Assembly: GCF_050920415.1 (NCBI RefSeq)
Contig: NZ_CP169309.1
DNA: 64,000 nt
Direction: 5' to 3' (one strand)
From: Escherichia coli
GTDB taxonomy: Bacteria; Pseudomonadota; Gammaproteobacteria; Enterobacterales; Enterobacteriaceae
Made by a program: the position numbers and the translations under genes. Below are positions 48,949-52,464 of the stretch, piece by piece; positions within the stretch are counted from its first letter, which is position 1, and every line of letters starts with the position of its first letter. Under the pieces are notes generated by a model, which ran no database searches, had not been told where the DNA came from, and was given only the letters and a program-made list of their open reading frames with translations.

Positions 48949-50364
48949 TTATTTCAGCCCCAGGGCGGCTTTCATGGTGTAGAAGAGATCGGTCTGGTCG
49001 GTCAGTCCAACGACATTGGCGGCATGTGGGCCATACGCCGCAATACGCAGCTGACTACCGGTATGTTCTTGTGAATCCTCTTCGGAGTTCCCGTAACTCA
49101 TTACCATCACCGCGCCATCTTTGGTATTTAGCGCCTGGGTGAGGCCCGGCGCTTTGGTGTCCGGCGCGACAATCTGGCTGGCGTGGGCGTGATCAGCGGT
49201 GACTATGACCAGCGTGTTGCCATCCTTTTTAGCGAATTCCAGCGCCCGTTGTACGGCTTCGTCGAGATCGACCGTCTCGCCAATTTGCCCACAAGGATTC
49301 GCCGCGTGATCCTGTTTATCGATTGATGCACCTTCAACTTGCAGGAAAAAGCCTTTCTCATTTTTACTCAACAATTCAATGGCTTTATCAGTCATCTGCG
49401 CCAGGGTCGGTACGCTGTCATTACGTTGCGGATTAGGCGTACAGGTAACTGCGGGCTTGTCGATATTGCCGTGGTACGTTGCTTTCGGTCCTTGCCAGCG
49501 CACTGGCATATTGCCGTCAGCAAACAGGCCAAGCAGGGGTTTTTGCTGGTTCGCTTCCGTCACCGCGTTCAGCGAGGCAGCATCGTTCACTAACTGATAA
49601 CCACGCACCTGCGCCTGTTCACGCAGCGTTTTTCCCTGCCATTCACCAGCGGTTGCCGTTTCCGCAAAGGTTTTTGCGCCGCCGCCAAGCGTAACATCGG
49701 CACGGGCGTTAAGCAGCTGTTCGGTAATCGATCCTTTTCCGCCTTTTTCCAGCGCGTTACCCGGACATTTTTCACTGGTCGCGCTCGGACCGTAGCATTT
49801 GCGCGAAGTCACATGCGCCACCAACGCGGCGGGAGTGGCATCCTGCAACTCTGCGGTAGAAACGTTACCGGTCGCCAGCCCTGCGGCTTTTGCCATTTCC
49901 AGAATCGTTGGGTGATCTTTTTCATGAATATCGACACCCAATGCGCCATTATAGGTTTTGACACCGGTTGACCAGGCAGTTGCTGATGCAGCCGAGTCGG
50001 TAACGTAGTCCGGTTTGCCGGTTTTTTTATTCAGCGCATAGTGAGTGTATTGCCCAGTAAGCGGTAAGGCATCAATACCTTTAAAAAAGCCGCCCGCACC
50101 TTCGGCATAATTACGTGCGGCAGTAATTTCCGAATCCCCCATCCCATCGCCAATCAGCAAAATAATATTTTTTGCAGGCTTATCGCTAAGAGAATCACGC
50201 AGAGCGGCGCTCTGATCACCCGTTAAGCGGCGAGCACCGCCGGGTGCAGTAATATCGCCCTGAGCAGCCCGGTTTTCCAGAATAGGCATTTCTGGTGTCC
50301 GGGCTTTTGTCACAGGGGTAAACAGTAACGGTAAGAGTGCCAGTGCAATAGTGCTTTGTTTCAC
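48949..50364 (-). CDS. phoA: alkaline phosphatase
   Basis: ORF 48949..50406; start set at GTG giving (M)[20 protein letters not shown], 471 aa; active-site region [12 protein letters not shown]. Confidence 0.95.
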
Positions 50365-50464: not shown

Positions 50465-50725
50465 TTACTGACGAGGATGCTTCAATAACTTCTTTACATA
50501 ATCGCGCAGCAGCTCCGTATCGTCGTCAGGAATGCTGGCATCGGGCTTTACCTCGTAAAGCGCCCCCTCTACCTGATCAATCAACCGCTGTTGGTCATTT
50601 TGCGCCATATTACGAAGCATTGCAGTGACGATAATCTCCAGTGCTTCTACCTGCGCGCACAGTTCTTTCGACTCTTCTTCTTTTTGGGCAAGCTTAAATA
50701 ACAACTCAGCAATGAGATTTTTCAT
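50465..50725 (-). CDS. iraP: anti-adaptor protein IraP
   Basis: 86-aa [34 protein letters not shown]... (YaiB). Confidence 0.9.
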
Positions 50726-51187
50726 GTCTGTATTTCCTTATCCAAAGTATGGAGAAGTTAACATTATGCTTCACAACTTCATAGTGTCTGGAGGTAGTAT
50801 TTTTATGACGAATGAAATACTTTGCGCAAATATTTTTTCCATATTTATCAGCGAAACGTTTCTCTTATTTAAATAAGTAACCATACAAAGTATAGGTTTT
50901 TAATTATCAACCTTTATTATAAGTAAAAGTTATGAAATATATTCTCTTTGCTAACTTATAATTAAGAGAAAAAAACTCACTGCATGGCCATTTAAACCAG
51001 GAATAAATTAGCTTCCCGTTCATCATTTTTGTGATCTTGCGCACATCTTTGAGATAACGCACTTTCTTCACCAGTACGTTGCACACTTTGTCAGTAGAAG
51101 ATTGCAACATTCTGTCAGAAGGCCGCGAATCCCCCGTTTTGTCGTGGTAATGTATGCACTTTGTGTTAGACGGGATAGGTTTTCAAG

Positions 51188-52282
51188 ATGGAAAAACTGC
51201 GGGTAGGAATCGTTTTTGGTGGTAAATCAGCGGAACATGAAGTGTCTTTGCAATCGGCAAAAAACATTGTCGATGCCATTGATAAAAGTCGCTTCGACGT
51301 TGTGCTGCTGGGCATTGATAAACAAGGGCAATGGCACGTCAGCGATGCCAACAATTATCTGCTAAATGCAGACGATCCTGCCCATATTGCGTTGCGCCCT
51401 TCGGCGACCAGTCTTGCGCAGGTGCCTGGTAAACATGAGCATCAGCTTATCGACGCGCAAAACGGTCAGCCATTGCCGACGGTGGATGTCATTTTCCCGA
51501 TTGTTCACGGTACGCTAGGCGAAGATGGTTCCTTGCAGGGAATGCTGCGGGTCGCCAATTTACCGTTTGTGGGTTCTGATGTTTTGGCGTCAGCGGCCTG
51601 TATGGATAAAGATGTCACCAAACGTCTGCTACGCGATGCCGGGCTGAACATTGCGCCATTTATTACCCTGACACGCACCAATCGTCAAAACATCAGTTTT
51701 GCCGAAGTGAAGTCAAAACTGGGGTTACCGCTGTTTGTAAAACCCGCTAACCAAGGCTCTTCTGTTGGTGTCAGCAAAGTAACCAGTGAAGAAGAGTACG
51801 CAATTGCCGTCGATCTGGCGTTCGAGTTCGATCATAAAGTGATCGTTGAGCAAGGGATCAAAGGTCGTGAGATCGAATGCGCGGTTCTGGGCAACGACAA
51901 TCCGCAAGCCAGTACCTGTGGCGAGATCGTACTAACCAGCGATTTCTATGCCTACGACACCAAGTACATTGACGAAGATGGCGCGAAAGTGGTGGTTCCG
52001 GCAGCCATTACGCCTGAAATTAACGATATGATCCGGGCAATTGCCGTTCAGGCTTATCAAACGTTGGGTTGCGCAGGCATGGCGCGTGTAGACGTGTTTT
52101 TAACCCCAGAGAACGAAGTGGTAATCAACGAGATCAACACACTGCCAGGCTTCACCAACATCAGTATGTATCCGAAGCTGTGGCAAGCCAGCGGTTTGGG
52201 TTACACCGACCTGATCACACGTCTGATCGAGTTGGCGCTGGAGCGTCACGCTGCGGATAACGCATTGAAAACCACGATGTAA
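51188..52282 (+). CDS. ddlA: D-alanine--D-alanine ligase A
   Basis: 364-aa [36 protein letters not shown]...; ATP-grasp. Confidence 0.95.
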
Positions 52283-52287
52283 TTTTT

Positions 52288-52316
52288 AAATGCCCAATAA
52301 CTGTTATTGGGCATTT
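52288..52316 (+). terminator. hairpin downstream of ddlA
   Basis: aaatgcccaataactgttattgggcattt perfect inverted repeat right after ddlA stop. Confidence 0.5.
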
Positions 52317-52330
52317 AAGACTGTAAGATT

Positions 52331-52419
52331 GCCTGATGCGCTTTGCTTATCAGGCCTACAAGATAATTGCAATATACTGATTTTGTAGGCAGGATAAGGC
52401 GTTCGCGCCGCATCCGGCA
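52331..52419. repeat. BIME (two REP units)
   Basis: gcctgatgcgctttgcttatcaggcctac ... gtaggcaggataaggcgttcgcgccgcatccggca. Confidence 0.8.
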
Positions 52420-52464
52420 AAAACAACGAGCACTTTGTCAGCCCCCAGAACGCCCAATCCTCTG

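Follow-up and report, generated by a model that had tools for sequence, protein, structure and literature searches.

Class II CRP-dependent promoters, of which galP1 and melR are examples, the operators of LacI-family regulators such as that of RbsR at rbsD, and the control region of iraP, a gene that controls RpoS stability, are the described systems closest to the DNA considered here, the spacer between iraP and ddlA of Escherichia coli. At rbsD, the operator sits immediately upstream of the start codon and overlaps the transcription start. The iraP promoter is reportedly activated by guanosine tetraphosphate (ppGpp) and DksA and is said to receive input from CsgD and, in Salmonella, from PhoP, in work attributed to Bougdour & Gottesman 2007, Girard et al. 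2018, Gualdi et al. 2007 and Tu et al. 2006. The spacer occupies positions 50726–51187 of a 64,000-nucleotide stretch of contig NZ_CP169309.1 (assembly GCF_050920415.1), called the window below and meaning the whole of the DNA analysed, and its 462 bp separate the divergent genes iraP (50465–50725, minus strand) and ddlA (51188–52282, plus strand). It is very probably non-coding regulatory DNA that is long because it is a deletion scar, in which the control regions of two lost genes became fused. The kinds of component in it are familiar, namely an extended -10 sigma-70 promoter, a class II-type CRP promoter, a LacI-family operator and a spurious call of an open reading frame (ORF). The gene and its upstream DNA are likewise those of the known iraP control region; newly described are the proposed origin by gene loss, the assignment of the CRP site to a promoter that an MdtG-like transporter gene left behind and, at iraP, the operator of RbsR type, and none of these three was described in the literature searched.

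The evidence for gene loss comes from the same interval in related bacteria. In a set of 80 loci anchored on DdlA, one genome per species, a gene for an MdtG-like transporter of the major facilitator superfamily (MFS) lies between iraP and ddlA on the iraP strand at 68 loci, and a second gene, encoding 235–237 residues, stands between the MFS gene and ddlA at 39 of the 80. The MFS protein has 396–403 residues and scores 544.7 bits with the MdtG model of NCBIfam, slightly short of its cut-off of 571. Both genes are present in Salmonella enterica and S. bongori, where the second carries the Pfam domain Extensin-like_C, and both are missing from all Escherichia sequences sampled. A protein search with the MFS query had only Citrobacter among the 120 matches listed and is uninformative on distribution. 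The proposed ancestral order has the Extensin-like_C gene and the MdtG-like efflux gene between ddlA and iraP, both reading toward iraP; Salmonella and most Enterobacteriaceae genera sampled would have kept one or both, while Escherichia would have lost both gene bodies and kept their flanking control regions, now fused.

The flanks of the missing genes can be recognized in the spacer. Positions 50726 to about 50880 align to the Citrobacter spacer between iraP and the MFS gene, and about 50944–51187 to that between the MFS gene and ddlA. Against Salmonella, 51106–51187 plus ATGTT align to the spacer between ddlA and the extensin-like gene, and 50901–50942 align locally to the spacer between the MFS gene and iraP; positions 50996–51050 align to the DNA just upstream of the MFS gene. 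The extensin-like junction falls somewhere in 51046–51105 and the MFS junction somewhere in 50943–50995. Salmonella and Citrobacter have, behind the MFS stop codon, a stem-loop that would be the terminator of the MFS gene; it is gone from Escherichia. Read from ddlA, the spacer consists of the ddlA promoter and leader, a relic ATG, the CRP promoter of the MFS gene, neutral AT-rich DNA and the iraP control region. A comparable interval occurs in Citrobacter sp. R56 (locus L009, 2397–3000), which is also without the MFS and extensin-like genes; its spacer, of 604 bp, still has the RbsR-type operator together with a CRP-like site (TGTGAAGCACATCACG), its IraP and that of Salmonella share 93% identity, and the interval may represent an independent loss with the same two elements retained.

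The spacer is core E. coli DNA, carried by 5422 of 5426 complete genomes, and is 100% identical to that of strain 2013C-4282 and 94.4% identical to that of K-12. The sequence-only reading had described a very AT-rich gap of about 460 bp between divergent genes, and this description holds, with a GC content of 0.342 against 0.499 for the whole window. Composition is uneven along it, with 0.225 over 50867–50995, 0.30–0.34 beside iraP and 0.44–0.46 beside ddlA. As a neutral yardstick for its divergence, the fourfold-degenerate sites of ddlA, iraP and phoA (48949–50364, minus strand, next to iraP) were used; divergence from the window at these sites is 0.126 for K-12, 0.258 for L078, 0.324 for E4208 and 0.412 for E. 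albertii, L078 and E4208 being divergent Escherichia lineages.

Measured in this way, the spacer is a mosaic of conserved and drifting segments. Against E. albertii, positions 50726–50775 are conserved (3/50 differences), 50776–50846 are moderately constrained (19/74) and 50847–50866 are again conserved (1/21). The segment 50867–50995 diverges at the neutral rate (45/132 differences against E. albertii and 43/132 against Escherichia sp. E4208); it is unconstrained AT-rich filler and holds the MFS-deletion junction. It is followed by a conserved block at 50996–51050 (9/55 against E. albertii, P = 7e-5; 4/55 against E4208, P = 1e-5), by 51051–51096, which changes at the neutral rate or above (22/46 and 18/46, respectively), and by 51097–51187, which is strongly conserved (6/91 against E. 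albertii, P = 9e-14). Nothing in 51051–51096 can be aligned to the Salmonella extensin-like gene, and this segment probably contains the junction left by loss of that gene body. A published NagC site predicted with FITBAR at 50872–50894 lies in neutral DNA, differs from K-12 at 4 positions and is not conserved. In one strain, E. coli ECNB21-M121 (L083, 3245–4662), an IS5-like element, ISKpn26, has entered the neutral AT-rich block at about window position 50970.

The conserved block at 50996–51050 has the form of an orphaned promoter on the minus strand. Its CRP site, TGTGATCTTGCGCACA at 51030–51045, is identical in K-12, and a -10-like TAATTT lies at 51010–51005, so that the start predicted near 50998 would place CRP at about -39.5. 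It has been reported in a Footprint-seq preprint of 2026 that this is a novel high-affinity CRP site, with a dissociation constant of 1.2 nM in vitro, assigned there to 'ddlA / iraP' (PMC12871828, Table 1). The genomic setting points to another owner. In about 10 genera (Citrobacter, Salmonella, Enterobacter, Lelliottia, Leclercia, Kluyvera, Pluralibacter, Pseudocitrobacter and others) the site lies 121–124 bp from the MFS ATG, and the stretch between it and ddlA measures 143 to 837 bp, according to whether the extensin-like gene is there. Judged by this fixed spacing, the CRP site is one that belonged to the lost MdtG-like gene. In alignment A1 the CRP half-sites are invariant, and a -10-type hexamer lies 27.5 bp from the site centre, reading TAAAAT in Citrobacter, CAAAAT in Salmonella, TAATTT in E. 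coli and GAATTT in E. albertii. The element resembles class II CRP promoters in its near-consensus TGTGA-N6-(T/G)CACA with 9 of 10 half-site bases, in a -10-type hexamer about 27.5 bp downstream and in its nanomolar affinity for CRP in vitro. It differs from them in that the gene it served is gone in Escherichia, in that CRP is predicted at -39.5 and not at the canonical -41.5, and in that the -10, TAATTT, is a decayed form of TAAAAT. In Salmonella (L089, 2911–2926) and Citrobacter (L004, about 2770–2790), a second conserved palindrome, TGTGAyrTATCGCAC, stands upstream of the MFS gene and about 48 bp downstream of the CRP site, and it is lost in Escherichia; it may be the operator of a dedicated regulator of the transporter.

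The orphan CRP block is under purifying selection in Escherichia, which suggests that the site has been rewired to a neighbouring gene. A peak of FNR in chromatin immunoprecipitation (ChIP) lies 30–45 bp from the CRP site, and iraP is FNR-repressed in three datasets, with its start site outside the FNR peak (Myers et al. 2013). Since there is no better FNR motif nearby (under the FNR peak, the best match to the FNR consensus has 7/10 positions and is 70–90 bp away), the CRP-type site would be the likeliest FNR target, and we infer that a CRP/FNR-family protein uses it and now influences iraP. Because the stem-loop behind the MFS gene is gone, taken by the deletion, the likeliest route would be read-through; any transcript begun at the orphan promoter would continue for about 270 nt into iraP and would give iraP an input from the CRP/FNR family.

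Several observations weigh against the gene-loss account and the promoter reading attached to it. The tblastn comparison of the MFS and 235-residue proteins with the spacer returned chance-level matches only; because no pseudogene fragments are detectable, the deletion is deduced from synteny and flank homology, and neither junction can be placed to the base. All that is traceable from the lost coding sequences is the extensin-like start codon plus two further bases. In other MFS-less loci (L009, L057, L062 and L064), tblastn likewise detected nothing of the lost genes. That Escherichia lost them, and other genera did not gain them, would follow from parsimony over the genera sampled. The -10-like hexamer is weaker in E. 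coli than in Citrobacter and weaker still in E. albertii, and the ISKpn26 copy of the one strain sits between the CRP site and iraP. Neither Cappable-seq dataset, one of them checked on the iraP strand only, reports a start site near 50998. The Cappable-seq cells were reportedly grown in glucose medium, in which CRP is inactive.

The second conserved element stands upstream of iraP. At 50847–50866 (centre 50856.5) lies a palindrome, TCAGCGAAACGTTTCTCTTA, that resembles an RbsR-type (LacI-family) operator and shares 18 of 20 positions, and 13 of 14 in the core, with the K-12 rbsD operator, TCAGCGAAACGTTTCGCTGA. When both strands were searched for GCGAAACGTTTC with at most one mismatch, this was the sole place in the window. 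The core does not vary among 8 Escherichia sequences. Across the 25 loci listed, which come from about 10 named genera (both Salmonella species, Enterobacter, Kosakonia, Lelliottia and Phytobacter among them), every copy has the core AAACGTTTCG; the flanks cannot be aligned, and the operator lies 123–141 bp upstream of the iraP ATG in 24 of these loci and at -205 in Kluyvera. The RbsR-like element is under purifying selection. It is missing from the Citrobacter freundii complex, which also has a divergent IraP. In that complex (L004–L008 and L010; iraP at about 950–1290), IraP aligns over its first 59–66 residues only, with 57–65% identity, and the IraP ORF of L004 encodes 81 residues with a different C-terminus.

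With the rbsD operator the element shares, besides most of its positions, the central CG and the AGCGAAAC half-site. It differs in one imperfect half-site (GAGAAAC) and in its location, with its centre at -63.5 relative to the distal iraP start, or -107.5 relative to the proximal start, and upstream of the -35 element. It does not cover the core promoter, contrary to what steric repression would lead one to expect, and if functional it would be an activator site, an anti-activator site or a site for looping. Its likeness to the rbsD operator suggests RbsR as the binder. No link of RbsR to the iraP promoter and no binding data for the iraP site were found in the literature searched, and a genomic SELEX (systematic evolution of ligands by exponential enrichment) summary for RbsR gives 5 sites with 3–4 targets only. 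A 2024 study in Salmonella reported that deletion of rbsR lowers RpoS protein post-transcriptionally by an unexplained route, and the same screen recovered iraP; a rival explanation cited there runs via rbsD mRNA (PMC10965054). It is possible, though rather less probable than its negation, that RbsR binds 50847–50866 and directly controls iraP, and that in addition the orphan CRP/FNR site gives Escherichia iraP a carbon or oxygen input through read-through.

Two of the alternatives to be weighed would make the spacer encode a product. The sequence-only reading had noticed a short basic ORF of 67 codons at 50907–51110 (minus strand) with no obvious ribosome-binding site, had thought the DNA less likely to be coding than regulatory and had allowed for an unannotated small protein or small RNA (sRNA). 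The ORF is present as described, with 14 lysine and arginine residues against 3 aspartate and glutamate residues, and no Shine-Dalgarno-like stretch is found before its ATG (the preceding sequence is CTTCTGACAGA). That it is a real, young, Escherichia-specific gene for a small basic protein would be supported by the Prokaryotic Genome Annotation Pipeline (PGAP), which annotates a hypothetical protein here in almost every E. coli genome sampled, and by the unbroken frame in the window strain, K-12 and O157:H7. Nevertheless, the frame is stopped or shifted in 5 of 8 aligned Escherichia spacers (the E. coli strains GN02100 and MS14387, and L078, E4208 and E. albertii), PGAP itself marks it as 'frameshifted' or 'internal stop' in two E. 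coli strains, and the curated MG1655 record is without it. Compared with K-12, the ORF has 8 substitutions in 7 codons, all 7 of them nonsynonymous, and its ATG becomes TTG, whereas the 6 nucleotide changes that iraP shows over an equal comparison all leave its protein unaltered. At its two ends the ORF runs through DNA drifting at the fourfold-site rate, it is conserved only where it overlaps the CRP block, and its 67-residue product shows no sign of purifying selection. Homologues of the protein occur in Escherichia and Shigella only, many of them truncated, and it matches no NCBIfam family. The published K-12 Cappable-seq data contain no start site on the ORF strand between U00096.2 398,889 and 400,543, and the plus-strand Ribo-RET rows of Stringer et al. 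contain no initiation peak between yaiZ and iraP, both negatives referring to K-12 in a few growth conditions. By the refuting conditions named in the sequence-only reading, loss of the frame in related genomes and lack of ribosome signal, the ORF fails as a gene. A protein-coding gene is thus given almost no credence, and the 67-codon ORF is a chance relic frame, in line with the doubts first raised about it.

The start codon of this chimeric frame has a traceable origin, which sets it apart from the usual spurious intergenic calls, although it resembles them in its automatic annotation, its restriction to one genus, its variable frame and the lack of protein-level selection. In the alignment with Salmonella, CTTCTGACAGA|ATGTT stands opposite CTTCTGCCATA|ATGTT, and the ORF ATG (51110–51108) is by position the homologue of the ATG with which the extensin-like gene of Salmonella begins; because 51106–51187 and the ATGTT align to the Salmonella spacer and gene start, the ATG is a relic of the lost gene, its former start codon. 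All further small ORFs of the spacer were rejected, being broken in relatives or conserved only through the promoter blocks. An sRNA, such as a short transcript made under CRP control at the orphan promoter, would be favoured by the conserved promoter-like block with its high-affinity CRP site, and the start-site data checked reportedly come from conditions of low CRP activity. This reading is nevertheless very improbable. Six Rfam matches were obtained at a permissive threshold in a 1.2-kb search, all with E >=0.7 and far below the gathering thresholds, a consensus scan found no terminator-like hairpin within the spacer, the DNA downstream of the predicted start diverges at the neutral rate, and neither Cappable-seq dataset has a start near 50998; on the iraP strand, the two published Cappable-type datasets contain the starts of iraP only. 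The sRNA that had been allowed for is therefore not borne out. Promoter and terminator consensus sites in the spacer are no more numerous than in shuffled sequence.

The other two alternatives accept that the spacer is regulatory DNA and dispute its elements. It could be no more than AT-rich promoter DNA coated by H-NS, with the CRP-like and RbsR-like sequences inert, whether by chance or as relics that have not yet decayed. The core is indeed AT-rich (77.5% AT over the 129 bp of 50867–50995), and the FNR ChIP signal at the spacer rises from 0.44 to 0.96 when both hns and stpA are deleted (Myers et al. 2013), so that FNR occupancy doubles without H-NS and StpA. The CRP site is also unreported in earlier CRP studies, being called novel in the preprint (PMC12871828), and the short list of RbsR targets from genomic SELEX fits this reading as well. 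It is unlikely, however, because both elements are far better conserved than fourfold sites and the adjoining DNA is not, because the RbsR-like core is an island of identity between unalignable flanks at a near-fixed distance from iraP in about 10 named genera, because CRP binds its site at 1.2 nM in vitro, and because a CRP/FNR-family protein is there in vivo and iraP responds to fnr. No H-NS peak starts or ends at U00096.2 399,900–400,499 in the table of Myers et al. 2013. For the palindrome at 50847–50866 it is also doubtful, if somewhat less so, that the binder is another LacI-family regulator such as Cra or PurR and not RbsR. The central AAACGTTT is common to RbsR, Cra and PurR operators, the site lies upstream of the promoter, a position from which Cra is known to activate, and the left half-site varies among genera as GAGAAAC, GAAAAAC, GTAAAAC and GTGAAAC. 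On the other side stand the match to the rbsD operator described above, a 16-bp core that agrees with RbsR at 15 of 16 positions against about 10 of 16 for an ideal Cra or PurR site, and the best-conserved half, GTTTCGCTG, which is an exact RbsR half-site.

The promoters at the two ends of the spacer complete this picture. The ddlA promoter, with a 28-nt 5' untranslated region, occupies 51097–51187 on the plus strand. SMRT-Cappable-seq places the ddlA start at NC_000913.3 400951 on the reverse strand, corresponding to window position 51160, which is 7 nt after the extended -10 TGGTAATGT at 51145–51153. A sigma-70 ChIP peak at 400,216 lies near this start (Myers et al. 2013). The block is about 80% identical across Citrobacter, Enterobacter, Kosakonia and Salmonella, and the ddlA promoter and leader are ancestral. 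A separate anaerobic sigma-70 ChIP-seq peak at about 51070 (U00096.2 400,265) lies about 90 bp upstream of the ddlA start, between the ddlA promoter and the CRP site, and the ddlA sigma-70 signal is about 2.8-fold higher anaerobically (Myers et al. 2013). A second, FNR-activated ddlA promoter, with the CRP site at -41.5, was considered and rejected: it has no usable -10, its DNA is unconstrained, and ddlA is not in the FNR-dependent expression table.

On the iraP side, two promoters on the minus strand correspond to mapped starts. The proximal promoter and the 5' untranslated region fill 50726–50775, with a start at 50748/50749 (SMRT-Cappable-seq 401362; Cappable-seq 400587 in U00096.2, score 168), a likely -10 TAACTT at 50760–50755 and a TG at 50763–50762; the CATAAT at 50768–50763 picked by the consensus scan does not fit the mapped start and was set aside. 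The distal promoter, at 50776–50846, starts at 50792/50793 (SMRT-Cappable-seq 401318; Cappable-seq 400543), and its score of 298 is the strongest in the spacer. Its hexamers were assigned from sequence as a -10 TAAAAA(T) at 50805–50799 and a -35 TTGCGC at 50829–50824, with an A/T-rich stretch at 50830–50846 upstream of the -35. A sigma-70 ChIP peak at 400,584 lies over the iraP starts (Myers et al. 2013). Within the leader of the distal transcript, a 22-codon upstream ORF initiated by GTG (50706–50774, minus strand) overlaps the iraP start codon out of frame; it is conserved, as is the whole leader, and has no Ribo-RET peak. Beyond ddlA, a 161-bp insert at window positions 52302–52462, between ddlA and yaiZ, contains two units like repetitive extragenic palindromes, forming a bacterial interspersed mosaic element; on both sides of it the shared terminator hairpin arm recurs as a 16-nt direct repeat (CTGTTATTGGGCATTT / CTGTTATTGGGCGTTT). 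The insert is absent from K-12 and from 2013C-4282, which makes the window strain a different one from 2013C-4282, although the spacer of 2013C-4282 is fully identical.

The sequence-only reading had preferred promoter and nucleoid-protein-binding DNA to coding sequence. Its regulatory preference stands, and the promoter part is supported by three mapped starts and by sigma-70 peaks at both ends of the spacer, while support for the nucleoid-protein part is indirect; it had not seen that two genes were lost, nor had it noticed the orphaned CRP site or the operator of RbsR type. As first framed, the finding is ordinary, and its remaining interest lies in the two conserved elements, which are candidate protein-binding sites. 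The 67-codon ORF, an annotation artefact carried by nearly all the RefSeq E. coli genomes sampled, could be removed. The spacer itself is a clear, datable case of control regions outliving their gene. The RbsR-type operator at the promoter of iraP is a modest but testable lead on the influence of RbsR on RpoS. If control of iraP through the two elements is true, it would tie ribose availability to RpoS proteolysis and offer a mechanism for the rbsR effect on RpoS in Salmonella, and it would give the iraP of Escherichia a carbon or oxygen input that the iraP of Salmonella is without.

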